From Alphaproteobacteria bacterium (GTDB lineage: Bacteria > Pseudomonadota > Alphaproteobacteria > Bin95), in the NCBI GenBank assembly GCA_965220855.1, contig CBDCQY010000001.1, positions 1,384,592-1,448,591 on the forward strand: a stretch of 64,000 nucleotides of DNA. Reading direction: 5' to 3'. How positions within the stretch are numbered: the first letter of the stretch is position 1; each line of letters opens with the position of its first letter. Below are positions 3,162 through 64,000 of this stretch, in pieces. The notes below the pieces were generated by a model. It made no database searches. It was not told the origin of the DNA and saw only the letters and a list, made by a program, of their open reading frames with translations. Made by a program: the position numbers and the translations under genes.

Positions 3162-3207
3162 CGGCGCGGATCTGCGGCTTGCTGGCGCGGTCACAAATGC
3201 TTTTCGT

Positions 3208-3236
3208 TTGCTTGATATTCCAGCGCCTGCTAGTAT
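3208..3236 (+). promoter_or_regulatory. putative sigma70-like promoter (TTGCTT-17 bp-TAGTAT) for autotransporter copy 1
   Basis: The -35/-10 hexamers have 17-bp spacing, and their positions and sequences are conserved upstream of copy 2 (6732-6760) despite divergence in the surrounding sequence. Confidence 0.35.
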
Positions 3237-3285
3237 TGTGAGCATATTCGACGTGACGCCGGTAGGGCTGCTTCTGGGGCAGAAA

Positions 3286-6606: not shown

Positions 6607-6708
6607 GCTACGCCTCCCGGATTGCGCGCTGAATGGGGACGGCCGCCGGAACGGTCGATGAGGTCGCCAACGCCCTTCAGAGGCCCGTGCAGCGCCTCGG
6701 GCGAGCTG
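6607..6708 (-). pseudogene. remnant of the 3' region of the coxL-like gene, a duplication scar (last 23 bp plus an internal ~60-bp block)
   Basis: Positions 6607-6629 match 10687-10709 (the coxL stop region). Positions 6642-6701 match coxL 11141-11200, which encodes LPEALRGPLEGVGDITDRSGG. About 420 bp between the two blocks is deleted. Antisense ORF 6477..6740 translates to ...SPEALHGPLKGVGDLIDRSGG. Confidence 0.7.
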
Positions 6709-9800: not shown

Positions 9801-10686
9801 GCAGAAGAAGCTGGCTGCGGGCGGGGCGCTGCACGCTGCGGTCGGCGTCGGTTACGGCGATATGGAGCATGCGCCCGCCGGCGAGGATCGGACGAGGGCG
9901 GATCTGGACATGCTGCTGGCCTTGGCGGGAGGCCGCTGGCCGGCGGCGCGGAGCGGCGGTCTGGCGCTGTCGGTCACCGGCGATGCGGGTCTGGCGCGCA
10001 TGGAGACCGATGGCGACGGCGACGACAGCCCGATCGCGGGTCTCAAGGCGGAGGTTTGGCGGCTGCGCGCCGGTCTGGAGGCGGCGCATGACGGTCTGAT
10101 GCTGGCGGACACCGGTTCTGGCCTCCGGCTGACGCCGCTTCTTTCGCTCGCGCTCCGGCAGGATGGCGGCGACGGACAGACCGGAACCGGCCTGGAGGCC
10201 GGGGCGCGCTTTGCCTTCGCCGGTCCGGGATCGCGCCTCGGCTTGGACGTGCATGGCCATTGGCTGGCGCTGCATTCCGAAAGCAGCCGCCGTGAGTGGG
10301 GCGCTGGTCTGCAAGCGACCTTGAGGCCGGATGTTGGCGGCCGGGGCCTCTCGCTCTCGCTCGGCCCGCGCTGGGGCGCGCCGGGCGGAAGCATGGGCGC
10401 GTTGCGGAGCGACGACGCCTTCTCCGGGAGCGCTGCGCCGACGGACCGGGCTTCTCTGGCCGCCGGCGTCGCCTGGGGCATGGGCGTGGCCGATGGCGGA
10501 CTGCTGTCGCCCTTCATGGAACTGGACCTGGCCGGGGGCGAGGACGGCCGTCGGCGCTACAGCGCCGGAGCGGAACTGGGCCTGGCCGAGCAGCGGGTCC
10601 GGGCCCGACTGGCGGCCGAATGGATCGACGACAGCGCGGAAGGCAACGAAACCGGCATCGGCGTTCGCTTGCGTCTGCGCTTCTGA
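6811..10686 (+). CDS. type Va autotransporter adhesin, copy 2 (paralog of 3286..6606 with ~10 putative-Ig repeats)
   Basis: Signal peptide MTTLLDRAPVLWGLLWPALVACALIASPAWSQ. The 3' ~1.4 kb is ~99% identical to copy 1. The N-terminal ~170 aa are divergent but have 6 positionally conserved Cys. Ends ...GVRLRLRF. Confidence 0.85.
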   Translation: MTTLLDRAPVLWGLLWPALVACALIASPAWSQSQQCESGGEGSSHHPKAEPKGTITKLAAANEYRIEVAWPLARFTEDGSVCSSTTWHYPFLSDAGSRSCQIDPVSDHAIDGDNSGGSLQVDVTRIDSGNPSCDYISTGRYRASLREEDSLGINIYTICSLSANTFRNRFDACESDFVTLSLASAPRFEETISDRTWEQYAAIETVTLPVASGGEAALVYTLTPALPAGLSFDADARTIAGAPTDAQASTTYTYKATDNDGNAALLTFQLEVVTPPLTFGGESIDDQTWPIGRAIQPLTLPAAAGGLLPLTYTLRPALPDGVSFDPSTRRISGAPTVAQTATTYTYTATDSDTPADMATLTFTIAVSGELTFGGGNIEDRTYSTGLEIAPLQLPAAAGGDPPLVYTLTPPPPAGLVFDAATRRLSGAPSTPQVATAYTYTVTDGHGDTATLGFAIAVDANSRPSFGGAVIDDRTYNQGLTIATVQLPVATGGNGPLTYTLRPALPDGVSFDPLTRRISGAPTVAQTTTTYTYTATDSDTPAAVATLTFTILVSGELTFDGGNIEDRTYSTGLEIAPLQLPAAAGGDPPLVYTLTPPPPAGLVFDAATRRLSGAPSTPQVATAYTYTVTDGHGATATLGFAIAVDANSRPSFGGAVIDDRTYSQGLAIATVQLPAATGGNGPLTYTLTGALPTGLSFDAASRQIAGAPSSLQAATGYTYMATDRDGESVALNFTIAVETDSSPSFGGVGVPDQNYARGEEIEPLQLPAATGGNGALTYALTPAPPAGLALSSRWLSGAPTGAQAAATYTWRATDRDGDTAMLTFAIAVEETTEEMRRLAWDVLADIGRASLASAADTIHQRLDTPPDATMKLAGQKVELMSFASGSFQWPNRRAVSQWLNADTLLARSAFLLPLAKGGGSRSDWTFWGRGDLRRFEGGRQRASHESSLASGWLGLDAQLGDGLLAGAALSRSWSETDWRLAEDKGEIETSLNSVYGYMQKKLAAGGALHAAVGVGYGDMEHAPAGEDRTRADLDMLLALAGGRWPAARSGGLALSVTGDAGLARMETDGDGDDSPIAGLKAEVWRLRAGLEAAHDGLMLADTGSGLRLTPLLSLALRQDGGDGQTGTGLEAGARFAFAGPGSRLGLDVHGHWLALHSESSRREWGAGLQATLRPDVGGRGLSLSLGPRWGAPGGSMGALRSDDAFSGSAAPTDRASLAAGVAWGMGVADGGLLSPFMELDLAGGEDGRRRYSAGAELGLAEQRVRARLAAEWIDDSAEGNETGIGVRLRLRF
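7921..9036 (+). repeat. internal 558-bp tandem duplication (two He_PIG repeat pairs) inside autotransporter copy 2
   Basis: The string accttcgg/atggcggcaatatcgaggatcggacctacagcacggggctggaaattgcgccg recurs at 7921 and 8479. Identical antisense ORFs at 7928..8134 and 8486..8692 are 558 bp apart. This accounts for copy 2 being 555 bp longer than copy 1. Confidence 0.8.
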
Positions 10687-10687
10687 G

Positions 10688-13036
10688 CTACGCCTCCCGG
10701 ATTGCGCGCCAGATGCGTTCGGGGGTGGCGGGCATTTCGATGTGGCGGACGCCGAGGTCGGCCAGGGCGTGGCATAGGGCGTTCACGACCAGGCCGAGGG
10801 CGGGGGTCGTGCCGCCCTCGCCGCCGGGGCGGACGCCGTGCGGGTGCGAGCTTGCCGGCGTTTCTCCGAGCAGCGTCCTGAGCGGCGGCAGGTCGTCGGC
10901 GCGCGGCATGGCGTAGTCCATGAAGGAGCCGGTCAGCAGCTGGCCGTCCTCTGGCCGGTAGCAGACCGCCTCCAGCAGCGCCTGGCCCGCCCCCTGCGCG
11001 ATGGCGCCCTGCGCCTGGCCGTGCAGGATGAGCGGGTTGACCGCGAGGCCCACATCGTCGATCCCGGTCCAGGCGACGATGCGCGCCCGCCCGGTCTCGG
11101 GATCGACTTCCACCTCGCAGACATGCGCGCCATAAGGATAGCCGCCGGAACGGTCGGTGATGTCGCCGACGCCCTCCAGCGGCCCGCGCAGCGCCTCGGG
11201 CAGGCTCGCGCCCTCCGCCGCCCCGGCCAGCTGCTCCAGGCGGATGCTGGCCCCGCCGCCGGCGTGGAAGGCGCCCTCGCGCCAGCGAAGCTCCTCCGGC
11301 CGGGCCTGCAGCAGATGCGCCGCCATGGCCCGGCCGCGCGCGAGCAGCGCCGCCACCGCCTGTTCGATGGCGATGCTGGCGAGGCGCATCGATCGCCCGG
11401 AATGCGAGCCGCCGCCGACGGTTATCCGATCGGTGTCGTTGGCGACATAACGGATGCGCTCGAAGGCGACGCCCAGCCAGTCGCCCGCCAGCTGCGGAAA
11501 GCTGGTCTCATGGCCCTGGCCGCTGCTCATCGTGCCGACCGCAAGCTCGATCTCGCCCGAGGCGAGCGCCCGGAGTTCGGCCCGCTCGCGGGGGATGCCG
11601 CTGGTCACCTCGATATAGTTGGCGACCGCGATGCCCCGCCGGAGCCCGCGCCGGGCCGCCTCCGCCCGGCGCGCCTCGAAGCCGGTCCAGTCGGCCGCCG
11701 CGAGCGCCCGGTCCATGGCGGCGGGATAGTCGCCGCTGTCATAGGTGACGCCGACGGCGTTGGTAAACGGCATGGCGTCCGGGCGGATCAGGTTGCGCCG
11801 GCGCAGCTCCGCCCGGTCGCAGCCGAGCCGCCCGGCGGCGAGTTCGATCAGCCGCTCGATCGTGTAGATCGCTTCCGGGCGCCCGGCGCTGCGATAGACG
11901 GCCGTCGGCGCGGTGTTGGTCAGCACCGCATGGCCGCGAAAGTGGACGGCGGGGATGCGGTAGCTGCCCTGCATCATCGAAAGGCCCTTGCGCAGCGGCC
12001 AGAAATAGACCGCATAGGCGCCGAGATTGAGCGTGTTGACGCCCCGGAGCGCGAGGAAGTTGCCGTCTGCGTCCAGCGCCAGTTCCGCTTGCGAGAACAG
12101 GTCGCGGGCCTGATAGTCGGAGAGGAAGCATTCGCGCCGGTCGGCGACCCACTTCACCGGGCGCCCCGTGCGCCGGGCCGCCCAGGGCATGAGCGCGAAT
12201 TCCGGCGAGAAGGCGTTGCGCGTGCCGAAATTGCCGCCCATGTCGCCGAAGACCGCGCGGCACGTCTCCAGAGGCGCGCCGAGCACGGCCGCAAGCCGCT
12301 CGCGCGTCTGCACCGCGCCGCGCCCGGAGGCCGCCCGCAGCGTGTAGCGCTCCGTCGCCGAGTCATACTCGCCGATGACGGCGCGCGGCTCCATCGGCGC
12401 GCCGTTGACGCGCTGGACATGGCTCTCGAACGAGACGGTGTGCGCGGCGCGCGCAAAGGCCGCCGCCACCGCCTGCGCATCGCCGACCTCGGCGGTGAGC
12501 GCCAGATTGTCGGCGCGGTCCGGCCAGAGGCGGGGCGCGTCGGCCGCCAGCGCCGCCCGCGCCTCCGTCACCGCCGGCAGCGGCTCATACTCGACCGCGA
12601 CCAGCTCCGCCGCTTCGGCGGCCAGTGCGGCGGTCTCCGCGACGACCAGCGCCACCGCCTCGCCGCAATAGCGCGCCCGGTCCGCCGGCAGCGGCAGGTT
12701 GGGCGTGTCGGCGACCTCGAAGCCGGGCGGCAGGCGAAGCTCCGCGTCCGGCGGGCCGGTCCAGTCCGGCTTGTGCGGGATCGGCTGCAAGCCGTCCGCT
12801 GCGGCGTCGGCCCCGGTCAGCACCGCCAGCACGCCCGGCAGGGCGGCCGCGCGGGCGCCGTCGATGGCGCGGATGCGGGCATGGGCGTGGGGCGAGCGCA
12901 CCATGGCGGCGTGGGCCAGGCGCTTGGGCGCGACGTCATCGACATAGCGCCCGCGCCCGGTCAGCAGCCGCCGGTCCTCCGTCCTTCGGCGCGGCTTGCC
13001 GATCTCGCCGCCGCCGGCTCCGCTTGCCCCCGTCAT
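10688..13036 (-). CDS. xanthine dehydrogenase / aldehyde oxidase / CO-dehydrogenase family molybdopterin-binding large subunit (CoxL-like)
   Basis: 782 aa with IGKPRRRTEDRRLLTGRGRYVDDV at the N-terminus and typical MoCo-binding domains. I prefer the ATG at 13036 because GGGGAGAAG lies 7 nt upstream. The stop is 1 nt from the stop of autotransporter copy 2 (convergent). Confidence 0.85.
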   Translation of the reverse strand: MTGASGAGGGEIGKPRRRTEDRRLLTGRGRYVDDVAPKRLAHAAMVRSPHAHARIRAIDGARAAALPGVLAVLTGADAAADGLQPIPHKPDWTGPPDAELRLPPGFEVADTPNLPLPADRARYCGEAVALVVAETAALAAEAAELVAVEYEPLPAVTEARAALAADAPRLWPDRADNLALTAEVGDAQAVAAAFARAAHTVSFESHVQRVNGAPMEPRAVIGEYDSATERYTLRAASGRGAVQTRERLAAVLGAPLETCRAVFGDMGGNFGTRNAFSPEFALMPWAARRTGRPVKWVADRRECFLSDYQARDLFSQAELALDADGNFLALRGVNTLNLGAYAVYFWPLRKGLSMMQGSYRIPAVHFRGHAVLTNTAPTAVYRSAGRPEAIYTIERLIELAAGRLGCDRAELRRRNLIRPDAMPFTNAVGVTYDSGDYPAAMDRALAAADWTGFEARRAEAARRGLRRGIAVANYIEVTSGIPRERAELRALASGEIELAVGTMSSGQGHETSFPQLAGDWLGVAFERIRYVANDTDRITVGGGSHSGRSMRLASIAIEQAVAALLARGRAMAAHLLQARPEELRWREGAFHAGGGASIRLEQLAGAAEGASLPEALRGPLEGVGDITDRSGGYPYGAHVCEVEVDPETGRARIVAWTGIDDVGLAVNPLILHGQAQGAIAQGAGQALLEAVCYRPEDGQLLTGSFMDYAMPRADDLPPLRTLLGETPASSHPHGVRPGGEGGTTPALGLVVNALCHALADLGVRHIEMPATPERIWRAIREA

Positions 13037-50077: not shown

Positions 50078-50836
50078 CTAGACGGTCAGATAGCCGCCAT
50101 CGGCGGCGATCGTCACGCCGGTCACATATTGCGCCATGTCCGAGGCCAGGAAGAGCACCGGGCCGGCAATGTCTTCCGGCGCGCCGGGGCGGCCCATCGG
50201 GATATGGCGCATGAAGCGGGCCAGCATCTCCGGGTTCTTCTGGATGCCGTCCTCGTTGAGCGGCGTGAAGATCAGCCCCGGCGCCACGGCGTTCACCCGG
50301 ACGCCGAAGGGCGCGAGCTCGGCCGCAAGCGCCGTGGTGAAGTTCCTGACCGCGCCCTTCGAGGTCGTATAGGCCACCGAATTGGGCGTGTGCACGGTGG
50401 ACTGGATCGAGCCGGTATTCACGATCCGCCCCTTGGTCTGCTTCAGCTGGTCGAGAAAGGCGTGCGTCATGTAGAACAGGCTGTTGATATTGACGGCGAC
50501 CGTGTCTTCCCAGTCCTGCCGGGCGGTGTTGGAGGAAAGCGTCGCGCGGCGCACGATGCCGGCATTGTTGAACAGGATGGAGGCCGGCCCGAGCTCCAGA
50601 TGCACCCGCCCGGCGAGCGCCTGGCAGGCGTTGGCGTCGGTCACGTCCACTGCATAGGCCAGCGCCGCCGCCCCGATGCCGCTCGCCACGGCCTTGGCCT
50701 TGTCGCCCGCTATATCGACCACCGCCACCCTGGCGCCGGCCTCCGCCATGGCCTCGGCCGCGCCCCGCCCGATGCCGGAGCCGCCGCCGGTGACGACGGC
50801 GATATGGCCCGCCAGCAGTCCCTCAGGCACGATCAT
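50078..50836 (-). CDS. SDR family oxidoreductase
   Basis: VVTGGGSGIGRG, NNAG and YTTSKGA. Confidence 0.85.
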   Translation of the reverse strand: MIVPEGLLAGHIAVVTGGGSGIGRGAAEAMAEAGARVAVVDIAGDKAKAVASGIGAAALAYAVDVTDANACQALAGRVHLELGPASILFNNAGIVRRATLSSNTARQDWEDTVAVNINSLFYMTHAFLDQLKQTKGRIVNTGSIQSTVHTPNSVAYTTSKGAVRNFTTALAAELAPFGVRVNAVAPGLIFTPLNEDGIQKNPEMLARFMRHIPMGRPGAPEDIAGPVLFLASDMAQYVTGVTIAADGGYLTV

Positions 50837-51885: not shown

Positions 51886-54800
51886 TCAGAAGTTGAAGCG
51901 AAAGTTGAAGTGGAGGCGGCGGTTGTCAGCGGAGCCGCCGCGGTTCTCATGGCCGGCGATCAGTTCCAGATCGATATGGCGGGCGGCGGCCTGGAAGGCG
52001 AGGCCGGCCTCCAGTTTGCTCCGGTCGCCCGTCTCCTCCGAGAGGCGCAGCAGGGGTGACAGCAGGCCGGATGAGGCCGGCAGCTGGAAGCCGTAGCGGG
52101 CCTCCAGTTCCAGCAGGGTTGCATCGTTGCTTCCGAAGCTGGCTTCGTCATAGTCGAGATCGTCCGCCAGCATCGCGGACCTGTCCGCGCGCGGACCGGT
52201 CGTCAGGCGCACCGACCAGGAGAGGCCGCGCCCGCGGGCGCCCGGCGCCAGCCGCGCCTCTAGGCTCGCGCCCCATTCGCGCACGCCACGCCCGGAATGC
52301 GCCGCCAGCCAGCGGCCGCTCGCATCCAGGCTGAAGCGCGAGCCGGGGTCCGTGAGGCGCCCGCCGACCGAAACCTCGACGCCGGAGCCCGTCACCCCGT
52401 CGCCGCCGTCCTGGCGCAGCGTCAGTGCGCCGTGCGGCGCCAGCGTCAGTTCGGAGCTGGAGAACACAAATCCGTCATGTTCGGCTTCCACGCCGACGCC
52501 GAGGCGCCAACTCGCCGCCTTCAGCCCGCCGATCGAGGTCGCTCGGGAGCCGTCGGTCTCGATTTGCGCCAGGCCCAACTCGCCGGTTGCAGAGAGAGCG
52601 AAGCGGTCGTGCTGCGCTACGGGCATGCGCCCGCCGGCCGACAAGGCTAGCAATTCGAGGTCGGCCCGCTCCACCGCTCCTTCTCTCGGGCGATGCTCCA
52701 TCTCGCCCTGCCCGGCTCCGAGCACCAGGCGCAACCGGCCGCCGCCTTCCGTCGTCATCTGCAGATAGGGCCAGACCGCGGTCACCGAGGTCTCGACGCT
52801 GCCGCTGTCCTCGTCGATGCGGTAGTCGGTCTCGCCGTCGCTCATCGAGAGTCCGAGGCCGGCCAGCAGCCGTTCGTCCAGCCGCGCGTCCAGCCCCAGC
52901 CAGCCGGCCCGCTGCTCCCCTTCATAGCGCCCCGTCTCCGCCGGGCCCTCGAACTGCCGCCAGTCGCCCCGGCCCCAGACCGTCCAGGCCGCGCCGCTGT
53001 CCGCAGTTTCGTCCGACGCAGCCAGCGGCAGCGTGAAGGCGCTGCCGCCCAACAGGGTCTCGGCGCTCACCGCGTCATGCCGCCCGGCCGCCCCGCCCGG
53101 GGTTCGCACGATCCGGTTGCCCGTTTCGGAAGCGGCGAGTTGGCGCGCGTCGCCTACCCGGCGCCCGGCAAGCGACAGCGCCGGCGCGCCCGGCGTCGCA
53201 TCGAACCGCAAGCGGATCGCATCCGTCGCGCTCGACAAGGCGGTCCGCGCGATCCTGGCGAGCATCGCCTTCAGCACTTGCCGCTCGACCTCCGGCGGGG
53301 CGTCCTCGATCTCGTTGGTCACCGTCACCGTCACCGACCGGTCCGCCATATTGCCGTCGGCGTCGGTCGCGGTCAGCGTGTAGGCGTAGCCATTGTCCGC
53401 GTCGCTGTCGTCCGGCTTCTCGAAGTCCCGCCCGGCCAGCGTCACCGTGACGCCGCTGTTGCTCGCGCCCGAGAGCGCGAACAGGTCCGCATCGGCGCCC
53501 GAGAGCGACCAGGCGACGGCGCCGATCGGCGCATCGCCCGTCAACACCGCCGCGCCGGCATAGTCGGCGTTCTCCGCCACGCTGGCGTTGGCCACGCCGC
53601 CGAGAGCCAGCGCCGCCGCCTCGATGACATCCGTCACCGTCACCGTCACCGCAAGGCTCGTGATGTTGTCGTCATCGTCGGTCGCGGTCAGCGTGTAGGC
53701 GTAGCCATTGTCCGCGTCGCTGTCGCCCGGGTTCTCATAGTTGCGCGCGGCCATCGACACCGTAACGCCGCTGTTGCTCCCGCCCGAAAGCGCGAACAGG
53801 CCGGCGTCCGCCCCCGAGAGCGACCAGGCGACGGCGCCGATCGGCGCATCGCCCGTGAGCGTCGCCATTCCGCTGTAGCCGGCGTTCTCCGCCACGCTGG
53901 CGTCGCCCACCCCCGCGATGGCCAGAGCCGCAGTCTCGTCCGCGTCCGTCACCGCGATCGTCACCGAGGCGTTCGTGGTGTTGCTGTCGTCGTCGGTCGC
54001 AGTCAGCGTGTAGGCGTAGCTGTTGCCGCCGTCGGCGTCGCTCGGGTTCTCGAAGTCCTTCGGGGTCATCGACACCGTGACGCCGCCATTGCTCGCGCCC
54101 GAGAGCGTGAACAGGTCCGCGTCGGCGCCCGAAAGCGACCAGGAGACCGCGCCGATCGGCCCGCCCGTGAGCGTCGCCGTTCGGCTATAGGCCGCGCCCT
54201 CCGCCACGCTGGCGTCAGCCACCCCCGCCAAGGTCAGCGTCGCGGTCTCGATCGCGTCCGTCACCGTGACGGTCACCGTCCGGCTCACCGTGTTTTCGTC
54301 ATCGTCGGTGGCGGTCAGCGTGTAGATATAGCTGTTGTCGGCGTCGGCGTCGGTCGGGTTTTCGAAGTCGCGCACCGTCAGCGTCACCGTGACCCCGCTG
54401 TTGCTCTCGTCCGAGAGTTCGAACAGCTCTCCGTCATCGCCGTCGAGCTTCCAGGCGACGGAGCCGATCGGCGCCTCGCCCGCCATCACCGCCGCGCCGC
54501 TATAGACGGCGTTCTCCGCCACACTGGCGTCGGCCACGCCCGCCACCGCGAGCGCAGCGACCTCTTTCGCGTCCGTGACCGTCACCGTGAAGACATCCGA
54601 GGTCACCGTGTCGCCGTCGCGATCCGTCGCCTTCAGCGTGTATTCGTAACGGTTGTCCCCGTCGCTGTCGGCGGGGTTCTCGAAGTCCTGCTCCGCCAGC
54701 GTCACGGTCGCCTCGGTGGCGCTCTCGCCCGACAGCGCGAACTTCCCGGCGTCGGCTCCGCCAAGCTCCCAGTTCACCGGCGCGTCGGCCCCGGCCAGCG

Positions 54801-57800
54801 TCGCCTTGTCGGTGAAGGTCCCGTTCTCCTCCACTTCGCCGCTGTCGAGCTCCGTCAGGACCAGTATCCGGTCATCGTCCGCGACCGTCACCGTCACGCT
54901 GCCCGCGACCTCGTCATATTCCACGCCCGACGCCGCCAGCGCCACCGTCACGGTCTCGTTCGCCGCATCGTCGCCATCGTCATCGACCGGCGAGACCGTC
55001 ACCGTCTGCGCCATCTCCCAGTCGTCGGCGGTGAAGGTCAGCTCCGCCGGCGAAACCGTCGCCGCGCCCGCGTCACCGCTCGACACCGCCACCGTCACCG
55101 CCGCCGTCGGCACATGCGAAAGCGCAACCGTGAATGTCCCGGCGCCCTGGCCTTCGCTCAGCGCCAGCGCGCCATTCGTCAGCCCCGCCAGACTCAAGGA
55201 CGCGATCTCGTCATCCGCAACCGTCACCGAAACGCTGCCGGCGGCCTCGTCATATTCCACGCCCGACGCCGCCAGAGACACCGACAGGGCCTCGTTCCCC
55301 GCATCCGCGTCATCGACCGGCGTCACCGTCACCGTCTGCGCCACATTCCAGTTCGTCGGCGTGAATGACAGGGTCGTCGGCGTCGCCGCCGCCGCGCCCG
55401 CGTCACCGCTGGCTACCGCCACCGTCACCGCCGCCGTCGGCACATGCGAAAGCGCAACCGTGAATGTCCCGGCAGAGCCGCCCTCCGTCAGCGACACCGG
55501 ACCCCCGGCAACCGCCAGCGACGCCGTCTCGTCATCCGCAACCGTCACCGAAACGCTGCCCGCGACCTCGTCATATTCCACGCCCGACGCCGCCAGAGAC
55601 ACCGACAGGGCCTCGTTCCCCGCATCCGCGTCATCGACCGGCGTCACCGTCACCGTCTGCGCCGTATTCCAGTTCGTCGGCGTGAATGACAGGGTCGCCG
55701 GCGCCGCCGCCGCCGCGCCCGCGTCACCGCTGGCTACCGCCACCGTCACCGCCGCCGTCGGCACATGCGAAAGCGCAACCGTGAATGTCCCGGCAGAGCC
55801 GCCCTCCGTCAGCGACACCGGACCCCCGGCAACCGCCAGAGACGCCGTCTCGTCATCCGCAACCGTCACCGAAACGCTGCCGGTAACCGATCCATACTCC
55901 GTCGCCCCGGACGCCGTGAGCGAGACCGACAGGGCCTCGTTCCCCGCATCCGCATCATCGACCGGCGTCACCGTCACCGTCTGCGCCGCATTCCAGTTCG
56001 TCGGTGTGAACGACAGGGTCGCCGGCGTCGCCGCCGCCGCGCCCGTATCACCGCTGGCTACCGCCACCGTCACCGCCGCCGTCGGCACATGCGAAAGCGC
56101 AACCGTGAATGTCCCGGCGGAGCCGCCCTCCGTCAGCGACACAGGACCCCCGGCAACCGCCAGAGACGCCGTCTCGTCATCCGCAACCGTCACCGAAACG
56201 CTGCCGGTAACCGATCCATACTCCGTCGCCCCGGACGCCGTGAGCGAGACCGACAGCGACTCGTTCCCCGCATCCGCATCATCGACCGGCGTCACCGTCA
56301 CCGTCTGCGCCGTATTCCAGTTCGTCGGCGTGAATGACAGGGTCGTCGGCGTCGCCGCCGCCGCGCCCGCGTCACCGCTGGCTACCGCCACCGTCACCGC
56401 CGCCGTCGGCGCATGCGAAAGCGCAACCGTGAATGTCCCGGCAGAGCCGCCCTCCGTCAGCGCCACCGGACCCCCGGCAACCGCCAGAGACGCCGTCTCG
56501 TCATCGTCAACCGTCACCGAAACGCTGCCCGCGACCTCGTCATATTCCACGCCCGACGCCGCCAGAGACACCGACAGGGCCTCGTTCCCCGCATCCGCGT
56601 CATCGACCGGCGTCACCGTCACCGTCTGTGCCGCATTCCAGTTCGTCGGCGTGAATGACAGGGTCGCCGGCGTCGCCGCCGCCGCGCCCGTATCACCGCT
56701 GGCTACCGCCACCGTCACCGCCGCCGTCGGCACATGCGAAAGCGCAACCGTGAATGTCCCGGCAGAGCCGCCCTCCGTCAGCGACACCGGACCCCCGGCA
56801 ACCGCCAGAGACGCCGTCTCGTCATCCGCAACCGTCACCGAAACGCTGCCCGCGACCTCGTCATATTCCACGCCCGACGCCGCCAGAGACACCGACAGGG
56901 CCTCGTTCCCCGCATCCGCGTCATCGACCGGCGTCACCGTCACCGTCTGCGCCGCATTCCAGTTCGTCGGCGTGAATGACAGGGTCGTCGGCGTCGCCGC
57001 CGCCGCGCCCGTATCACCGCTGGCTACCGCCACCGTCACCGCCGCCGTCGGCACATGCGAAAGCGCAACCGTGAATGTCCCGGCGGAGCCGCCCTCCGTC
57101 AGCGCCACCGGACCCCCGGCAACCGCCAGAGACGCCGTCTCGTCATCCGCAACCGTCACCGAAACGCTGCCCGCGACCTCGTCATATTCCACGCCCGACG
57201 CCGCCAGAGACACCGACAGCGACTCGTTCCCCGCATCCGCGTCATCGACCGGCGTCACCGTAACCGTCTGCGCCGCATTCCAGTTCGTCGGCGTGAATGA
57301 CAGGGTCGTCGGCGTCGCCGCCGCCGCGCCCGCGTCACCGCTGGCTACCGCCACCGTCACCGCCGCCGTCGGCACATGCGAAAGCGCAACCGTGAATGTC
57401 CCGGCAGAGCCGCCCTCCGTCAGCGCCACCGGACCCCCGGCAACCGCCAGAGACGCCGTCTCGTCATCGTCAACCGTCACCGAAACGCTGCCCGCGACCT
57501 CGTCATATTCCACGCCCGACGCCGCCAGAGACACCGACAGGGCCTCGTTCCCCGCATCCGCGTCATCGACCGGCGTCACCGTCACCGTCTGCGCCGCATT
57601 CCAGTTCGTCGGCGTGAATGACAGGGTCGTCGGCGTCGCCGCCGCCGCGCCCGCGTCACCGCTGGCTACCGCCACCGTCACCGCCGCCGTCGGCACATGC
57701 GAAAGCGCAACCGTGAATGTCCCGGCAGAGCCGCCCTCCGTCAGCGACACCGGACCCCCGGCAACCGCCAGAGACGCCGTCTCGTCATCCGCAACCGTCA

Positions 57801-60800
57801 CCGAAACGCTGCCCGCGACCTCGTCATATTCCACGCCCGACGCCGCCAGAGACACCGACAGGGCCTCGTTCCCCGCATCCGCGTCATCGACCGGCGTCAC
57901 CGTCACCGTCTGCGCCGCATTCCAGTTCGTCGGCGTGAACGACAGGGTCGTCGGCGTCGCCGCCGCCGCGCCCGTATCACCGCTGGCTACCGCCACCGTC
58001 ACCGCCGCCGTCGGCACATGCGAAAGCGCAACCGTGAATGTCCCGGCGGAGCCGCCCTCCGTCAGCGACACCGGACCCCCGGCAACCGCCAGAGACGCCG
58101 TCTCGTCATCCGCAACCGTCACCGAAACGCTGCCCGCGACCTCGTCATATTCCACGCCCGACGCCGCCAGAGACACCGACAGGGCCTCGTTCCCCGCATC
58201 CGCGTCATCGACCGGCGTCACCGTAACCGTCTGCGCCGCATTCCAGTTCGTCGGCGTGAATGACAGGGTCGTCGGCGTCGCCGCCGCCGCGCCCGCGTCA
58301 CCGCTGGCTACCGCCACCGTCACCGCCGCCGTCGGCACATGCGAAAGCGCAACCGTGAATGTCCCGGCGGAGCCGCCCTCCGTCAGCGACACCGGACCCC
58401 CGGCAACCGCCAGAGACGCCGTCTCGTCATCCGCAACCGTCACCGAAACGCTGCCCGCGACCTCGTCATATTCCACGCCCGACGCCGCCAGAGACACCGA
58501 CAGGGCCTCGTTCCCCGCATCCGCGTCATCGACCGGCGTCACCGTCACCGTCTGCGCCGCATTCCAGTTCGTCGGCGTGAATGACAGGGTCGCCGGCGTC
58601 GCCGCCGCCGCGCCCGTATCACCGCTGGCTACCGCCACCGTCACCGCCGCCGTCGGCACATGCGAAAGCGCAACCGTGAATGTCCCGGCGGAGCCGCCCT
58701 CCGTCAGCGCCACCGGACCCCCGGCAACCGCCAGAGACGCCGTCTCGTCATCCGCAACCGTCACCGAAACGCTGCCGGTAACCGATCCATACTCCGTCGC
58801 CCCGCTCGCCGTGAGCGAGACCGACAGGGCCTCATCCCCCGCATCCGCATCATCGACCGGCGTCACCGTCACCGTCTGCGCCGCATTCCAGTTCGTCGGC
58901 GTGAATGACAGGGTCGTCGGCGTCGCCGCCGCCGCGCCCGCGTCACCGCTGGCTACCGCCACCGTCACCGCCGCCGTCGGCACATGCGAAAGCGCAACCG
59001 TGAATGTCCCGGCAGAGCCGCCCTCCGTCAGCGACACCGGACCCCCGGCAACCGCCAGAGACGCCGTCTCGTCATCCGCAACCGTCACCGAAACGCTGCC
59101 CGCGACCTCGTCATATTCCACGCCCGACGCCGCCAGAGACACCGACAGGGCCTCGTTCCCCGCATCCGCATCATCGACCGGCGTCACCGTCACCGTCTGC
59201 GCCGTATTCCAGTTCGTCGGCGTGAATGACAGGGTCGTCGGCGTCGCCGCCGCCGCGCCCGTATCACCGCTGGCTACCGCCACCGTCACCGCCGCCGTCG
59301 GCACATGCGAAAGCGCAACCGTGAATGTCCCGGCAGAGCCGCCCTCCGTCAGCGCCACCGGACCCCCGGCAACCGCCAGCGACGCCGTCTCGTCATCCGC
59401 AACCGTCACCGAAACGCTGCCCGCGACCTCGTCATATTCCACGCCCGACGCCGCCAGAGACACCGACAGGGCCTCGTTCCCCGCATCCGCGTCATCGACC
59501 GGCGTCACCGTCACCGTCTGCGCCGTATTCCAGTTCGTCGGCGTGAACGACAGGGTCGTCGGCGTCGCCGTCGCCGCGCCCGCGTCACCGCTCGACACCG
59601 CCACCGTCACCGCCGCCGTCGGCACATGCGAAAGCGCAACCGTGAATGTCCCGGCGGAGCCGCCCTCCGTCAGCGCCACCGGACCCCCGGCAACCGCCAG
59701 AGACGCCGTCTCGTCATCGTCAACCGTCACCGAAACGCCGCCCGTGACCGATCCATATTCGGCCGCCCCGCTCGCCGTGAGCGAGACCGACAGGGCCTCG
59801 TTCCCCGCATCCGCGTCATCGACCGGCGTCACCGTCACCGTCTGCGCCGCATTCCAGTTCGTCGGCGTGAATGACAGGGTCGTCGGCGTCGCCGCCGCCG
59901 CGCCCGTATCACCGCTCGACACCGCCACCGTCACCGCCGCCGTCGGCACATGCGAAAGCGCAACCGTGAATGTCCCGGCAGAGCCGCCCTCCGTCAGCGA
60001 CACAGGACCCCCGGCAACCGCCAGCGACGCCGTCTCGTCATCCGCAACCGTCACCGAAACGCTGCCCGCGACCTCGTCATATTCCACGCCCGACGCCGCC
60101 AGAGACACCGACAGCGACTCGTTCCCCGCATCCGCATCATCGACCGGCGTCACCGTCACCGTCTGCGCCGTATTCCAGTTCGTCGGCGTGAACGACAGGG
60201 TCGTCGGCGTCGCCGCCGCCGCGCCCGCGTCACCGCTCGACACCGCCACCGTCACCGCCGCCGTCGGCACATGCGAAAGCGCAACCGTGAATGTCCCGGC
60301 GGAGCCGCCCTCCGTCAGCGACACCGGACCCCCGGCAACCGCCAGAGACGCCGTCTCGTCATCCGCAACCGTCACCGAAACGCTGCCGGCGGCCTCGTCA
60401 TATTCCACGCCCGACGCCGCCAGAGACACCGACAGCGACTCGTTCCCCGCATCCGCGTCATCGACCGGCGTCACCGTCACCGTTTGCGCCGTATTCCAGT
60501 TCGTCGGCGTGAACGACAGGGTCGTCGGCGTCGCCGCCGCCGCGCCCGTATCACCGCTGGCTACCGCCACCGTCACCGCCGCCGTCGGCACATGCGAAAG
60601 CGCAACCGTGAAGCTCCCGGCAGAGCCGCCCTCCGTCAGCGCCACAGGACCCCCGGCAACCGCCAGAGACGCCGTCTCGTCATCGTCAACCGTCACAGCC
60701 ACCCCGTCCGTGACCGATCCATATTCGGCAGCCCCGCTCGCCGTGAGCGAAACCGACAGGGCCTCATCTCCCGCATCCGCGTCATCGACCGGCGTCACCG

Positions 60801-63800
60801 TCACCGTCTGCGCCACATTCCAGTTCGTCGGCGTGAATGACAGGGTCGTCGGCGTCGCCGCCGCCGCGCCCGTATCACCGCTCGACACCGCCACCGTCAC
60901 CGCCGCCGTCGGCACATGCGAAAGCGCAACCGTGAAGCTCCCGGCAGAGCCGCCCTCCGTCAGCGACACCGGACCCCCGGCAACCGCCAGAGACGCCGTC
61001 TCGTCATCGTCAACCGTCACCGCCACCCCGTCCGTGACCGATCCATATTCGGCAGCCCCGCTCGCCGTGAGCGAGACCGACAGGGCCTCATCTCCCGCAT
61101 CCGCGTCATCGACCGGCGTCACCGTCACCGTCTGCGCCGCATTCCAGTTCGTCGGCGTGAACGACAGGGTCGTCGGCGTCGCCGCCGCCGCGCCCGTATC
61201 ACCGCTGGCTACCGCCACCGTCACCGCCGCCGTCGGCACATGCGAAAGCGCAACCGTGAATGTCCCGGCAGAACCGCCCTCCGTCAGCGACACCGGACCC
61301 CCGGCAACCGCCAGAGACGCCGTCTCGTCATCCGCAACCGTCACCGAAACGCTGCCGGCGACCTCGTCATATTCCACGCCCGACGCCGCCAGAGACACCG
61401 ACAGCGACTCGTTCCCCGCATCCGCGTCATTGACCGGCGTCACCGTCACCGTCTGCGCCACATTCCAGTTCGTCGGCGTGAACGACAGGGTCGTCGGCGT
61501 CGCCGCCGCCGCGCCCGTATCACCGCTCGACACCGCCACCGTCACCGCCGCCGTCGGCACATGCGAAAGCGCAACCGTGAATGTCCCGACAGAGCCGCCC
61601 TCCGTCAGCGCCACCGGACCCCCGGCAACCGCCAGAGACGCCGTCTCGTCATCCGCAACCGTCACCGCCACGCTGCCGGCGACCTCGTCATATTCCACGC
61701 CCGACGCCGCCAGAGACACCGACAGCGACTCGTTCCCCGCATCCGCGTCATCGACCGGCGTCACCGTCACCGTTTGCGCCACATTCCAGTTCGTCGGCGT
61801 GAACGACAGGGTCGCCGGCGTCGCCGCCGCCGCGCCCGTATCACCGCTCGACACCGCCACCGTCACCGCCGCCGTCGGCACATGCGAAAGCGCAACCGTG
61901 AAGCTCCCGGCAGAGCCGCCCTCCGTCAGCGCCACAGGACCCCCGGCAACCGCCAGAGACGCCGTCTCGTCATCCGCAACCGTCACCGAAACGCTGCCGG
62001 TAACCGATCCATACTCCGTCGCCCCGGACGCCGTGAGCGAGACCGACAGGGCCTCATCTCCCGCATCCGCGTCATCGACCGGCGTCACCGTCACCGTCTG
62101 CGCCGTATTCCAGTTCGTCGGCGTGAATGACAGGGTCGTCGGCGTCGCCGCCGCCGCGCCCGTATCACCGCTCGACACCGCCACCGTCACCGCCGCCGTC
62201 GGCACATGCGAAAGCGCAACCGTGAATGTCCCGACAGAGCCGCCCTCCGTCAGCGACACCGGACCCCCGGCAACCGCCAGAGACGCCGTCTCGTCATCGT
62301 CAACCGTCACCGCCACGCTGCCGGCGACCTCGTCATATTCCACGCCCGACGCCGCCAGAGACACCGACAGCGACTCGTTCCCCGCATCCGCGTCATCGAC
62401 CGGCGTCACCGTCACCGTCTGCGCCGCATTCCAGTTCGTCGGCGTGAATGACAGGGTCGTCGGCGTCGCCGCCGCCGCGCCCGTATCACCGCTCGACACC
62501 GCCACCGTCACCGCCGCCGTCGGCGCATGCGAAAGCGCAACCGTGAAGCTCCCGGCAGAGCCGCCCTCCGTCAGCGACACCGGACCCCCGGCAACCGCCA
62601 GAGACGCCGTCTCGTCATCCGCAACCGTCACCGAAACGCTGCCGGTAACCGATCCATACTCCGTCGCCCCGCTCGCCGTGAGCGAAACCGACAGGGCCTC
62701 ATCTCCCGCATCCGCGTCATCGACCGGCGTCACCGTCACCGTCTGCGCCGTATTCCAGTTCGTCGGCGTGAACGACAGGGTCGTCGGCGTCGCCGCCGCC
62801 GCGCCCGTATCACCGCTCGACACCGCCACCGTCACCGCCGCCGTCGGCACATGCGAAAGCGCAACCGTGAATGTCCCGGCAGAGCCGCCCTCCGTCAGCG
62901 ACACCGGACCCCCGGCAACCGCCAGAGACGCCGTCTCGTCATCCGCAACCGTCACCGAAACGCTGCCCGCGACCTCGTCATATTCCACGCCCGACGCCGC
63001 CAGAGACACCGACAGGGCCTCGTTCCCCGCATCCGCGTCATCGACCGGCGTCACCGTCACCGTCTGCGCCGCATTCCAGTTCGTCGGCGTGAATGACAGG
63101 GTCGTCGGCGTCGCCGCCGCCGCGCCCGCGTCACCGCTGGCTACCGCCACCGTCACCGCCGCCGTCGGCACATGCGAAAGCGCAACCGTGAATGTCCCGG
63201 CAGAGCCGCCCTCCGTCAGCGCCACCGGACCCCCGGCAACCGCCAGAGACGCCGTCTCGTCATCGTCAACCGTCACCGTCACTGACTCGTCCGCCACGTC
63301 GTCATAGCCGCCGCCCGAGGGGTCGAGGTCGAGCGTGGCGCTGTCGTTCGCTGCATCGTCGTCGTGGGCCGCATCGACCGTCACCGTTTGCGCGAGACTC
63401 CAGTCCGAGGTCGTGAAGGTCAAGCTGGCGGGGCTGGCCGCCACCTCGTCATTGTCCGACGACAGCGCCACCGTCACCGTTCCCGTCGGGGCGGCCGCCA
63501 GCGCCAGGGTGAAGTTCCCCGACGAACCCTCCGTGATCGTCAGACTCGCCGGCGTCGCTGTCAGCCCCGCGCCCGGCTGGGCAGGGGTGACAGTGACGGT
63601 GAAGGTCTCGCTGACCGCCTCTCCGACGCCATAGTTTTCGGTAGCGGTGACAGTAATTGTCGCGGACCCGGAAGAAACGCCTGTAATTTCCACATTAAAA
63701 GTCACTCTAACTTCAAGAAAGTCATCCAAGATCTTGTTCACAATTTCTGCAACAGCGACAGAAGTATCGCTGCTCAAAGCGGTCACCTCCACCTCATCGG

Positions 63801-64000
63801 CGCTTCCTCCGTGGTTCACAAGGCCTGTGACTGTGACCTGCGGTGTTTCCTCCGTCTCCCCGAGGGCTACCGTGAGATCGTCAATGGAGCTGATGGATCC
63901 GTGAGAGAAGGTTTCGGCCGACTGCGCTCCCGCCAGCAGGAATATCGCGCTGGACAACATCGCCAGGCCGCTTCCGGAAAATCGCTTCGGCCTTCTGCCC
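51886..64000 (-). CDS. giant type Va autotransporter (>4,000 aa): N-terminal low-GC tip region, ~26 Calx-beta-like repeats, 5 cadherin-like repeats, C-terminal beta-barrel translocator. The 5' end is probably beyond the window.
   Basis: One uninterrupted minus-strand ORF of 12 kb. The reading frame remains open upstream of the M at 63960 (GRRPKRFSGSGLAMLSSAIFLLAGAQSA looks like a signal peptide). The C-terminus WTVWGRGDWRQFEG...LTLRQDGGDG...NRRLHFNFRFNF is clearly homologous to the translocators of the two smaller autotransporters and ends in aromatic residues. Confidence 0.85.
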   Translation of the reverse strand, partial: GRRPKRFSGSGLAMLSSAIFLLAGAQSAETFSHGSISSIDDLTVALGETEETPQVTVTGLVNHGGSADEVEVTALSSDTSVAVAEIVNKILDDFLEVRVTFNVEITGVSSGSATITVTATENYGVGEAVSETFTVTVTPAQPGAGLTATPASLTITEGSSGNFTLALAAAPTGTVTVALSSDNDEVAASPASLTFTTSDWSLAQTVTVDAAHDDDAANDSATLDLDPSGGGYDDVADESVTVTVDDDETASLAVAGGPVALTEGGSAGTFTVALSHVPTAAVTVAVASGDAGAAAATPTTLSFTPTNWNAAQTVTVTPVDDADAGNEALSVSLAASGVEYDEVAGSVSVTVADDETASLAVAGGPVSLTEGGSAGTFTVALSHVPTAAVTVAVSSGDTGAAAATPTTLSFTPTNWNTAQTVTVTPVDDADAGDEALSVSLTASGATEYGSVTGSVSVTVADDETASLAVAGGPVSLTEGGSAGSFTVALSHAPTAAVTVAVSSGDTGAAAATPTTLSFTPTNWNAAQTVTVTPVDDADAGNESLSVSLAASGVEYDEVAGSVAVTVDDDETASLAVAGGPVSLTEGGSVGTFTVALSHVPTAAVTVAVSSGDTGAAAATPTTLSFTPTNWNTAQTVTVTPVDDADAGDEALSVSLTASGATEYGSVTGSVSVTVADDETASLAVAGGPVALTEGGSAGSFTVALSHVPTAAVTVAVSSGDTGAAAATPATLSFTPTNWNVAQTVTVTPVDDADAGNESLSVSLAASGVEYDEVAGSVAVTVADDETASLAVAGGPVALTEGGSVGTFTVALSHVPTAAVTVAVSSGDTGAAAATPTTLSFTPTNWNVAQTVTVTPVNDADAGNESLSVSLAASGVEYDEVAGSVSVTVADDETASLAVAGGPVSLTEGGSAGTFTVALSHVPTAAVTVAVASGDTGAAAATPTTLSFTPTNWNAAQTVTVTPVDDADAGDEALSVSLTASGAAEYGSVTDGVAVTVDDDETASLAVAGGPVSLTEGGSAGSFTVALSHVPTAAVTVAVSSGDTGAAAATPTTLSFTPTNWNVAQTVTVTPVDDADAGDEALSVSLTASGAAEYGSVTDGVAVTVDDDETASLAVAGGPVALTEGGSAGSFTVALSHVPTAAVTVAVASGDTGAAAATPTTLSFTPTNWNTAQTVTVTPVDDADAGNESLSVSLAASGVEYDEAAGSVSVTVADDETASLAVAGGPVSLTEGGSAGTFTVALSHVPTAAVTVAVSSGDAGAAAATPTTLSFTPTNWNTAQTVTVTPVDDADAGNESLSVSLAASGVEYDEVAGSVSVTVADDETASLAVAGGPVSLTEGGSAGTFTVALSHVPTAAVTVAVSSGDTGAAAATPTTLSFTPTNWNAAQTVTVTPVDDADAGNEALSVSLTASGAAEYGSVTGGVSVTVDDDETASLAVAGGPVALTEGGSAGTFTVALSHVPTAAVTVAVSSGDAGAATATPTTLSFTPTNWNTAQTVTVTPVDDADAGNEALSVSLAASGVEYDEVAGSVSVTVADDETASLAVAGGPVALTEGGSAGTFTVALSHVPTAAVTVAVASGDTGAAAATPTTLSFTPTNWNTAQTVTVTPVDDADAGNEALSVSLAASGVEYDEVAGSVSVTVADDETASLAVAGGPVSLTEGGSAGTFTVALSHVPTAAVTVAVASGDAGAAAATPTTLSFTPTNWNAAQTVTVTPVDDADAGDEALSVSLTASGATEYGSVTGSVSVTVADDETASLAVAGGPVALTEGGSAGTFTVALSHVPTAAVTVAVASGDTGAAAATPATLSFTPTNWNAAQTVTVTPVDDADAGNEALSVSLAASGVEYDEVAGSVSVTVADDETASLAVAGGPVSLTEGGSAGTFTVALSHVPTAAVTVAVASGDAGAAAATPTTLSFTPTNWNAAQTVTVTPVDDADAGNEALSVSLAASGVEYDEVAGSVSVTVADDETASLAVAGGPVSLTEGGSAGTFTVALSHVPTAAVTVAVASGDTGAAAATPTTLSFTPTNWNAAQTVTVTPVDDADAGNEALSVSLAASGVEYDEVAGSVSVTVADDETASLAVAGGPVSLTEGGSAGTFTVALSHVPTAAVTVAVASGDAGAAAATPTTLSFTPTNWNAAQTVTVTPVDDADAGNEALSVSLAASGVEYDEVAGSVSVTVDDDETASLAVAGGPVALTEGGSAGTFTVALSHVPTAAVTVAVASGDAGAAAATPTTLSFTPTNWNAAQTVTVTPVDDADAGNESLSVSLAASGVEYDEVAGSVSVTVADDETASLAVAGGPVALTEGGSAGTFTVALSHVPTAAVTVAVASGDTGAAAATPTTLSFTPTNWNAAQTVTVTPVDDADAGNEALSVSLAASGVEYDEVAGSVSVTVADDETASLAVAGGPVSLTEGGSAGTFTVALSHVPTAAVTVAVASGDTGAAAATPATLSFTPTNWNAAQTVTVTPVDDADAGNEALSVSLAASGVEYDEVAGSVSVTVDDDETASLAVAGGPVALTEGGSAGTFTVALSHAPTAAVTVAVASGDAGAAAATPTTLSFTPTNWNTAQTVTVTPVDDADAGNESLSVSLTASGATEYGSVTGSVSVTVADDETASLAVAGGPVSLTEGGSAGTFTVALSHVPTAAVTVAVASGDTGAAAATPATLSFTPTNWNAAQTVTVTPVDDADAGNEALSVSLTASGATEYGSVTGSVSVTVADDETASLAVAGGPVSLTEGGSAGTFTVALSHVPTAAVTVAVASGDAGAAAAAPATLSFTPTNWNTAQTVTVTPVDDADAGNEALSVSLAASGVEYDEVAGSVSVTVADDETASLAVAGGPVSLTEGGSAGTFTVALSHVPTAAVTVAVASGDAGAAAATPTTLSFTPTNWNVAQTVTVTPVDDADAGNEALSVSLAASGVEYDEAAGSVSVTVADDEIASLSLAGLTNGALALSEGQGAGTFTVALSHVPTAAVTVAVSSGDAGAATVSPAELTFTADDWEMAQTVTVSPVDDDGDDAANETVTVALAASGVEYDEVAGSVTVTVADDDRILVLTELDSGEVEENGTFTDKATLAGADAPVNWELGGADAGKFALSGESATEATVTLAEQDFENPADSDGDNRYEYTLKATDRDGDTVTSDVFTVTVTDAKEVAALAVAGVADASVAENAVYSGAAVMAGEAPIGSVAWKLDGDDGELFELSDESNSGVTVTLTVRDFENPTDADADNSYIYTLTATDDDENTVSRTVTVTVTDAIETATLTLAGVADASVAEGAAYSRTATLTGGPIGAVSWSLSGADADLFTLSGASNGGVTVSMTPKDFENPSDADGGNSYAYTLTATDDDSNTTNASVTIAVTDADETAALAIAGVGDASVAENAGYSGMATLTGDAPIGAVAWSLSGADAGLFALSGGSNSGVTVSMAARNYENPGDSDADNGYAYTLTATDDDDNITSLAVTVTVTDVIEAAALALGGVANASVAENADYAGAAVLTGDAPIGAVAWSLSGADADLFALSGASNSGVTVTLAGRDFEKPDDSDADNGYAYTLTATDADGNMADRSVTVTVTNEIEDAPPEVERQVLKAMLARIARTALSSATDAIRLRFDATPGAPALSLAGRRVGDARQLAASETGNRIVRTPGGAAGRHDAVSAETLLGGSAFTLPLAASDETADSGAAWTVWGRGDWRQFEGPAETGRYEGEQRAGWLGLDARLDERLLAGLGLSMSDGETDYRIDEDSGSVETSVTAVWPYLQMTTEGGGRLRLVLGAGQGEMEHRPREGAVERADLELLALSAGGRMPVAQHDRFALSATGELGLAQIETDGSRATSIGGLKAASWRLGVGVEAEHDGFVFSSSELTLAPHGALTLRQDGGDGVTGSGVEVSVGGRLTDPGSRFSLDASGRWLAAHSGRGVREWGASLEARLAPGARGRGLSWSVRLTTGPRADRSAMLADDLDYDEASFGSNDATLLELEARYGFQLPASSGLLSPLLRLSEETGDRSKLEAGLAFQAAARHIDLELIAGHENRGGSADNRRLHFNFRFNF
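53390..54890 (-). repeat. five tandem cadherin-like ~98-aa repeats (DFENPxDxDxDNxYxYTLTATDxDxN motif) between the Calx array and the translocator
   Basis: Five units of pattern ...AGVADASVAEN..YSG.A.LTGDAPIGAVAWSLSGADA.LFALSG.SNSGVTV....RDFENP.DSDADN.Y.YTLTATDDD.N... Confidence 0.6.
54900..63600 (-). repeat. tandem array of ~26 Calx-beta-like repeat units (321/324-bp period), ~25 near-identical at the DNA level, two alternating subtypes
   Basis: The protein unit DDETASLAVAGGPV(S/A)LTEGGSAGTFTVALSHVPTAAVTVAV(A/S)SGD(T/A)GAAAATPTTLSFTPTNWN(A/T)AQTVTVTPVDDADAGNEALSVSL(A/T)ASG(VEYDEVAG/ATEYGSVTG)SVSVTVA is repeated. Identical antisense mini-ORFs recur every 321 or 324 bp from 55444 to 62527. Confidence 0.9.

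Follow-up and report, generated by a model that had tools for sequence, protein, structure and literature searches.

A giant autotransporter-family gene with a homogenised array of Calx-beta-like repeats in an alphaproteobacterial genome

The window analysed here is a stretch of 64,000 nucleotides from an Alphaproteobacteria bacterium (assembly GCA_965220855.1, contig CBDCQY010000001.1, positions 1,384,592 to 1,448,591 of the forward strand), and our subject is the giant minus-strand gene which fills its last 12 kb. A first reading of this DNA from its letters alone, hereafter the sequence-only reading, had proposed a single gene encoding an autotransporter with a passenger of Calx-beta-like and cadherin-like modules. 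We confirm a real and intact giant gene for an autotransporter-family fibre, and discuss below what its modules resemble, how its array has evolved and what its product may do.

A single open frame and its modules

The open reading frame (ORF; minus strand, 51886..63960) holds 4,024 codons, counted from the ATG at 63960, with zero internal stops, and closes with a stop codon at 51886..51888. These figures bear out the proposal of one giant minus-strand gene. A disrupted frame, named beforehand as a finding that would speak against it, was looked for, and the frame proved intact through all 27 modules of the repeat array described below; a pseudogene was rejected. The 13 in-frame codons between the ATG and the window edge (63961-63999), which read GRRPKRFSGSGLA, include no stop and no ATG, GTG or TTG. 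The true start thus lies beyond 64000, and the listed ATG (63960) is unlikely to be the genuine one. The frame, open to the edge, indicates a gene truncated by the limit of the window, with a length exceeding 4,037 codons. Residues GRRPKRFSGSGLA and MLSSAIFLLAGAQSA resemble a signal peptide's basic and hydrophobic portions: this partial, signal-peptide-like N-terminal segment (GRRPKRFSGSGLA-MLSSAIFLLAGAQSA, minus strand, 63916..63999) holds RRPKR, a hydrophobic stretch and AQSA, with RRPKR, upstream of the listed ATG, supplying the putative basic part. The protein as a whole is acidic (D+E 12.6%, K+R 1.8%) and without cysteine.

Next comes a distal N-terminal head of unique sequence (minus strand, 63571..63915, aa 16-130), not recognised by the repeat profile and returning only sub-threshold fn3_6 and Ig_GEX2_N matches in Pfam. 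It is probably one Ig-like domain and, from its position, a candidate ligand-binding tip.

The bulk of the protein is an array of 27 modules belonging to one beta-sandwich family of 107/108 aa, each scoring about 103-110 bits on a family profile (A2) which we built from 52 diverse single units. Tandem Repeats Finder reported it as a 321-bp period in 26.0 copies with 93% matches (54878-63278); the 27 modules span 8.7 kb in total, the length first estimated. All lie on the minus strand. At the N-terminal side stands a diverged module 0 (63259..63570, aa 131-234; A2 103 bits over profile positions 3-107), followed by 25 near-identical units of 321/324 bp (55210..63258, aa 235-2917) and by a second diverged module, number 26 (54871..55209, aa 2918-3030; A2 103 bits), adjoining the cadherin-like block. 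Pairwise nucleotide identity among the central 25 units ranges from 87.0 to 99.7%, with a mean of 93.7%; module 26 is 69-78% identical to units 1-25.

Parsing the units returned the roughly 25 near-identical copies in two subtypes which the sequence-only reading had described, together with its five cadherin-like modules. Subtype A (n=17) has 107 aa and carries 'VEYDEVAG', whereas subtype B (n=8) has 108 aa, carries '(A/T)EYGSVT' and comprises two sub-variants; what separates them is a cassette of about 45 nt, situated towards the unit's 3' end. Mean nucleotide identity is 96.8% for A-A pairs, 94.5% for B-B and 90.5% for A-B. The alternation of subtypes asserted at first does not hold, as the order across the 25 units is ABABAABBAABAABAAAAAAABBAA and only the first four units follow the ABAB pattern.

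Between the array and the translocator lie five cadherin-like modules of about 105 aa each (minus strand, 53290..54870, aa 3031-3557), detected by Tandem Repeats Finder as a second array (315-bp period, 4.6 copies, 77% matches, 53305-54742). They share the motif D(F/Y)E(N/K)PxDxDxDNxYxYTLTATD, whose DxDxDN and D(F)E elements appear cadherin-like by eye. Against Pfam Cadherin (PF00028) the block scored 21.4 bits (E 3.5e-4), below the 28.8 cut-off, and against K319L-like_PKD it scored 50.4 bits summed over partial matches. It had no relative among PDB sequences, and its modules, showing only trace similarity to the A2 family, are not members of it.

Concerted evolution had been suspected from the uniformity of the array, and the pattern of variation supports it. 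Across the 25 units, variation is confined to 61 of 342 alignment columns, and identical two-state variants recur in many combinations, each unit having its own distinguishing set. Gene conversion or unequal crossing-over is the expected source of such a mosaic of reshuffled two-state variants. The ratio of non-synonymous to synonymous polymorphism (pN/pS) stands at 0.41 among A units and 0.33 among B units, which implies purifying selection; together with a 12-kb open frame and 25 near-identical units in frame, it indicates selected coding sequence rather than chance.

Whether the number and order of units are to be trusted is an immediate concern in an 8-kb array of 94%-identical units, which an assembler might collapse, expand or mis-join while the gene itself is real. 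Several units are 98-99.7% identical (u15 and u20, for example), and the only related public contig attests to the assembly hazard of which the sequence-only reading had warned. This metagenome contig (ENA ERZ25072670, 5,769 bp, labelled 4x) consists entirely of repeat (17.1 copies), is broken inside the array at both ends, and has 3% indels and fragmented ORF calls; assemblers evidently fail here. The same contig, however, aligns with window positions 55937-61493 at 97.2% identity in one register and at 95.4% or less in shifted registers, and its subtype order (A/B/b) reproduces that of units 6-23 with one ambiguous call. This colinearity is evidence that at least 17 of the units are real and correctly ordered, although the sample is possibly not independent of the window's source. 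The intact frame, the distinguishing variants of every unit, and the recovery of related genomes as chromosome-scale metagenome assemblies also argue against an artefact, which we judge quite unlikely. Two scans of JGI metagenome contigs with repeat sequences (an invariant 50-mer and a 22-mer) gave no match.

The plus strand over the array also holds an open frame of 2,884 codons (54653-63307) and many ORFs of 81-404 codons that recur every 321 bp. All arise as side effects of the GC-rich repeat, and an annotator might mistake them for genes. GC skew on the plus strand is strongly negative (-0.10 to -0.24) across window positions 52001-64000, which mirrors the preference of the minus-strand repeat for G-rich codons (GCG, ACG, GTG, GAC) rather than a replication signal.

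The repeat module and its relation to Calx-beta

The repeat unit had been called Calx-beta-like, a label which proved defensible in one sense and not in another. The window's units had no significant match in Pfam, with no match to Calx-beta (PF03160, gathering score 27 bits) at E <= 0.1, and no part of the protein had a significant match in NCBIfam. A confident hit to a different domain family, which the sequence-only reading had set out as a contrary outcome, was thus sought for the units in these two collections and did not appear. Among PDB sequences, the A2 profile retrieved no Calx-beta chain, its best match being an IgA Fc receptor domain (2.8e-4), and a pair of units retrieved antibody light chains only, at E > 0.3. 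The kinship emerges from comparisons of greater reach. In hhalign, A2 aligned in register with a canonical Calx-beta module (itself scoring 83 bits on PF03160) at 94.4% probability and E 8.6e-8, and some sibling units reach 27-28 bits on PF03160. The remote homology is therefore upheld, and membership of the Pfam family is not.

Structural modelling agrees on the general fold. AlphaFold, given two consecutive units with 57 homologues, returned two beta-sandwiches of seven strand passes each at a predicted local distance difference test score (pLDDT) of 97. A fold search with the units ranked generic Ig-like sandwiches first, with ASH/PapD/MSP and S-layer Ig-like domains placed equally with Calx-beta or better. 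Pfam matches in the 57 homologous proteins were weak and inconsistent (fn3_6 in 32, LapA in 17, Calx-beta in 8), and those to Calx-beta fell partly on the unit-equivalent module, at the 27-28 bits mentioned, and partly on an adjacent canonical module. The invariant signature of the module comprises E16, L27, P31, F56, W61, V67 and D74. Compared with Calx-beta (PF03160, as in NCX1/CALX CBD1-2 and integrin beta4), the window's units have lost the 'GTA..G.DY' segment, carrying a shorter SGD-AGAAAATP stretch instead, and possess an invariant 'F(T)..NW..AQTVTV' motif. On these profile comparisons, the module is best described as a divergent sister family of Calx-beta, for which a superfamily label is acceptable but Pfam membership is not.

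This sister family is large. A homology search with a repeat query gave 275 proteins among the matches listed, which apparently comprise only those shorter than about 1.75 times the query, and nearly all are unnamed metagenome fragments. A profile search of 1.84 billion representative proteins gave 36,090 matches at E <= 0.001, of which 10,957 reached E <= 1e-30; the best were proteins of 2,000-7,900 aa containing as many as 67 units. By this standard the window's 27 units are unremarkable. Pfam has no dedicated model for the module, despite at least 36,090 cluster representatives.

Acidic positions are conserved well beyond the window. In 50 foreign units, E16 and D74 are each conserved in 98%, D106 in 96% and D76 in 72%, while D/N107 and E/D1 are so in about 75-85%. 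By strand order these residues fall in the A-B loop, the E-F loop and the C-terminal linker, at the module end abutting the next module, and they correspond to the Ca2+-binding positions of the NCX1 CBD1 structure. Given the acidic composition and the conserved positions at the junctions, Ca2+-dependent stiffening of the stalk is a reasonable expectation, and the conserved acidic residues probably bind Ca2+ to that effect. Beta-sandwich extenders and linkers stiffened by Ca2+ are described for RTX (repeats-in-toxin) adhesins (PMC7493085), and the Ca2+-stiffened linkers described there parallel the acidic clusters at the domain junctions of the window's units.

A long translocator and its relatives

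The last 467 aa form the translocator, and the C-terminal autotransporter beta-barrel anticipated by the sequence-only reading is supported there by both profile and model. The piece matches Pfam Autotransporter (PF03797) at 36.6 bits, above the threshold of 26; the match spans positions 2-214 of the profile's 255 and residues 105-307 of the piece. AlphaFold, run on the piece with 33 family members, returned a pLDDT of 76 and a predicted template modelling score (pTM) of 0.70, placing a helix, some 70 poorly modelled residues and then 18 consecutive amphipathic strands. The predicted alpha-helix has 29 residues (minus strand, 53200..53286, aa 3559-3587; piece residues 2-30, pLDDT 83-90) and is conserved in the family alignment (A3). 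It is followed by a linker of about 70 aa (minus strand, 52990..53199, aa 3588-3657), of low model confidence yet with the conserved motifs LTLAG and GSAFxLPL, and by the predicted outer-membrane beta-barrel (minus strand, 51889..52989, aa 3658-4024, 367 aa), which closes in ...HFNFRFNF; a terminal ...FNFRFNF is a typical end of outer-membrane proteins. We regard membership of the barrel in the autotransporter family as confirmed from the profile match and the predicted strands.

The translocator nevertheless departs from its canonical counterparts. The type Va barrel is defined as 12-stranded (PMC6555100) and comprises about 250 aa, whereas the one considered here has about 367 aa and some 18 predicted strands, making it approximately 110 aa longer. 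In type Va proteins (AIDA-I, Ag43, EstA, NalP; PF03797) the alpha-helical linker directly precedes the barrel; here about 70 aa are inserted between the 29-residue helix and the first strand. This helix-to-barrel segment has no counterpart in canonical type Va proteins and is conserved in the family. Eight homologues scored 34-47 bits on PF03797, the match in each stopping about 130-170 residues short of the C-terminus, and the last six predicted strands of our piece have pLDDT values of 61-81. The barrel may have 12 strands or about 18, the latter being the model's prediction. Neither the translocator profile nor the barrel alone matched any PDB sequence, including any solved autotransporter. 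Features of this kind would suit a C-terminal domain which has diverged from autotransporters into an outer-membrane anchor of about 16-18 strands, the passenger being exported through another machine, such as the translocation and assembly module (TAM) or an unlinked partner. Set beside the PF03797 match over most of that profile, we consider such a division of labour unlikely, and favour a barrel which serves the export of its own passenger.

The translocator is widely shared. Our alignment scan, covering one genome per species, found it at 79 loci, all in metagenome-assembled genomes, from Alphaproteobacteria, Gammaproteobacteria, Nitrospirales, Gemmatimonadota, Acidobacteriota, Latescibacterota, Nitrospinota, Binatia, Opitutales and Entotheonella. 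The closest homologues belong to Alphaproteobacteria/Rhodobacterales metagenome-assembled genomes, the best identity in the scan being 53%, in an Alphaproteobacteria genome. Several relatives' names point to sponges: Poriferihabitaceae, Porisulfidus (reported from a sponge metagenome) and Entotheonella. The distribution suggests a habitat-linked spread of the long-barrel family, possibly involving horizontal transfer. The family occurs in at least ten phyla, often in several copies per genome.

At 36 of the 79 loci, in several phyla, A2-type units occur in the same ORF as the translocator, for instance at least 26 of them within more than 3,700 aa in Nitrospirales, 16 in Porisulfidus and 14 in Binatia. 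Conversely, 52 of the 150 most repeat-rich proteins of the 1.84-billion library end in the same translocator at full length (E 1e-39 to 1e-115), so that the pairing is frequent in sequence databases; the opinion that joining such arrays to a type Va translocator is unusual is not borne out by these 52 proteins and 36 loci. Partial homogenisation of the repeats recurs in the family as well, with a 333-bp period in 11.9 copies at 85% in Nitrospirales (locus L074, 4298-8235) and a 351-bp period in 6.1 copies at 93% in Porisulfidus (locus L048, 5686-7805); none of the relatives' arrays examined was as long and uniform as the window's. Within the translocator, identity to the nearest giant relatives in this set of 150 is no more than 32-37%, and these are thus not orthologues.

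Two tandem, mutually paralogous autotransporters lie elsewhere in the window on the plus strand, at 3133-6606 (1,157 aa, with 5 He_PIG Ig-like domains in the passenger) and 6811-10686 (1,291 aa, with 7). Both belong to the same long translocator family, with full-length profile matches at E about 1e-120, and their translocators align end to end with that of the giant gene (41% identity for the copy at 3133-6606). Over 2.7 kb (3948-6629 and 8022-10709) their DNA sequences agree at 96%, suggesting recent duplication or gene conversion. Downstream of the giant gene, the genes scanned encode two short-chain dehydrogenases (the second at 50078-50836), EthD, a luciferase-like oxygenase and PrpD. Among the flanking genes scanned, neither type I secretion genes (ABC transporter, membrane fusion protein (MFP) or TolC) nor two-partner secretion genes were found. 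Looking up the exact sequences of the giant protein and of the second dehydrogenase gene in a sequence collection gave no match.

A surface fibre and its possible roles

We consider it probable that the gene encodes a giant monomeric surface fibre of the autotransporter type, dependent on Sec and on BAM (the machinery for beta-barrel assembly), stiffened by Ca2+ and most likely serving a high-GC bacterium as an adhesin, in which recombination within the gene homogenises the repeats. A Sec signal peptide, its first residues beyond the window, would direct the protein to the periplasm, and BAM would insert the C-terminal barrel into the outer membrane. The passenger would then be extruded from its C-terminus to its N-terminus, sequential folding of its Ig-like modules outside the cell lending directionality. 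Sequential folding of Ig-like passengers has been described as driving secretion in intimin (PMC6555100). The product would remain anchored, presenting in order the barrel, the helix, five cadherin-like modules, 27 Calx-beta-like modules and the unique distal head, while Ca2+ bound at module junctions would stiffen the rod. With modules of 4-5 nm each, a stalk of 33 modules would reach roughly 130-160 nm. Intragenic recombination, whether gene conversion or unequal crossing-over, would keep the 25 central units near-identical and could in principle alter their number and hence the reach of the fibre.

The protein invites comparison with three known systems. With inverse autotransporters (intimin, invasin) it shares a long stalk, monomeric and built of Ig-like domains in tandem, and a single outer-membrane barrel as anchor; it differs in its opposite domain order, in a PF03797 barrel in place of the intimin/invasin family, and in having no LysM or other periplasmic domain and no lectin cap that we detected. 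The inverse (type Ve) class was rejected, the barrel being C-terminal and not N-terminal. From type Va autotransporters it differs in the passenger, a beta-helix there and 33 Ig-like modules here. With the giant RTX adhesins (LapA, MpIBP, SiiE, BapA) it shares its size, its acidity, tens of near-identical beta-sandwich repeats of about 100 aa acting as an extender, and the homogenisation of those repeats.

A type I-secreted adhesin of the RTX or LapA-like kind, where Calx-beta and bacterial Ig-like arrays are usually met, was also considered. The protein is repeat-rich, acidic and cysteine-free and carries motifs of the Ca2+ type, and some sibling units match Pfam LapA weakly. Its tail, however, lacks GGxGxD nonapeptides, and RTX repeats are likewise absent from all of the 150 most repeat-rich proteins. 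A signal-peptide-like sequence stands at the N-terminus, the C-terminus is a predicted membrane barrel ending in Phe, and the flanking genes scanned lack the type I secretion components named above. A retention module is also wanting, the protein's own C-terminal barrel acting as anchor. We therefore rejected this candidate on the strength of the barrel, the missing GGxGxD motifs and the missing secretion genes, and its chances are in our view slight in the extreme.

A surface-anchored fibre need not be adhesive. The product might instead be a spacer or coat fibre, or a 'eukaryote-like' protein which modulates host recognition or phagocytosis. Of the relatives that have names, many stem from metagenome-assembled genomes that are sponge-associated and span numerous phyla, Porisulfidus among them, Calx-beta-like and cadherin-like folds also occur in animal surface proteins, and the Pfam search recognised no lectin or other binding domain in the head. 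Yet nothing distinguishes these roles from adhesion, and an anchor, a long rigid extender and a distal unique domain together make up the known architecture of fibrillar adhesins (PMC7616799). A non-adhesive role is accordingly the less expected outcome, though it merits somewhat more credence than export through a separate machine, and we retain the adhesin as the preferred reading.

Several aspects of the data weigh against the adhesin fibre as we have drawn it. Firstly, type Va passengers are mostly beta-helices, while arrays of Ig-like domains are typical of inverse (type Ve) autotransporters (PMC6555100), so that the secretion mechanism is extrapolated; the translocator, too, is atypical in its additional length of about 110 aa, in its 70 or so poorly modelled residues between helix and barrel, and in its approximately 18 predicted strands. 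Secondly, the start codon and the complete signal peptide fall outside the window. Thirdly, the case for Ca2+ binding proceeds from motif position by strand order and not from inspected coordinates, and the units' kinship with Calx-beta has to be set against the negative Pfam and PDB results given above. Fourthly, comparison of ERZ25072670 with the stretch of units 6-23 revealed no difference in copy number, and hence no hint there of the variability between strains which the sequence-only reading had thought probable. Finally, the family is known only as sequences, and cluster look-ups of the giant relatives returned no names.

We found no description, in the open-access literature, of an architecture combining an autotransporter with Calx-beta-like or Ig-like repeats, and the family thus appears large yet undescribed. 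Its most interesting point is the enlarged translocator. We tentatively propose, as a possibility which we would not yet call likely, that the gene belongs to a very large class of type V-like fibres in which an array of Calx-beta-related Ig folds, in place of a beta-helix, is exported with the passenger N-terminal and the barrel C-terminal, and in which the translocator has grown to about 18 strands from 12 and acquired the segment of about 70 aa, forming a distinct type V subclass across many bacterial phyla of animal (sponge) microbiomes.

The locus also carries practical lessons. It is a proven trap for annotation and assembly, as a short, low-coverage assembly broke inside it and the antisense ORF of 2,884 codons invites mis-annotation. 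The repeat module represents a sizeable unannotated domain family, and with a model of its own, giant proteins could be annotated by the thousand. Were our reading right, autotransporters of classical orientation would not be restricted to beta-helical passengers and 12-strand barrels. A longer barrel would serve to export, or else to anchor, Ig-like fibres of 4,000-7,900 aa, which bears on how type V systems handle very long, independently folding passengers. Such fibres would be candidate attachment or recognition factors in symbioses between sponges and their microbes.

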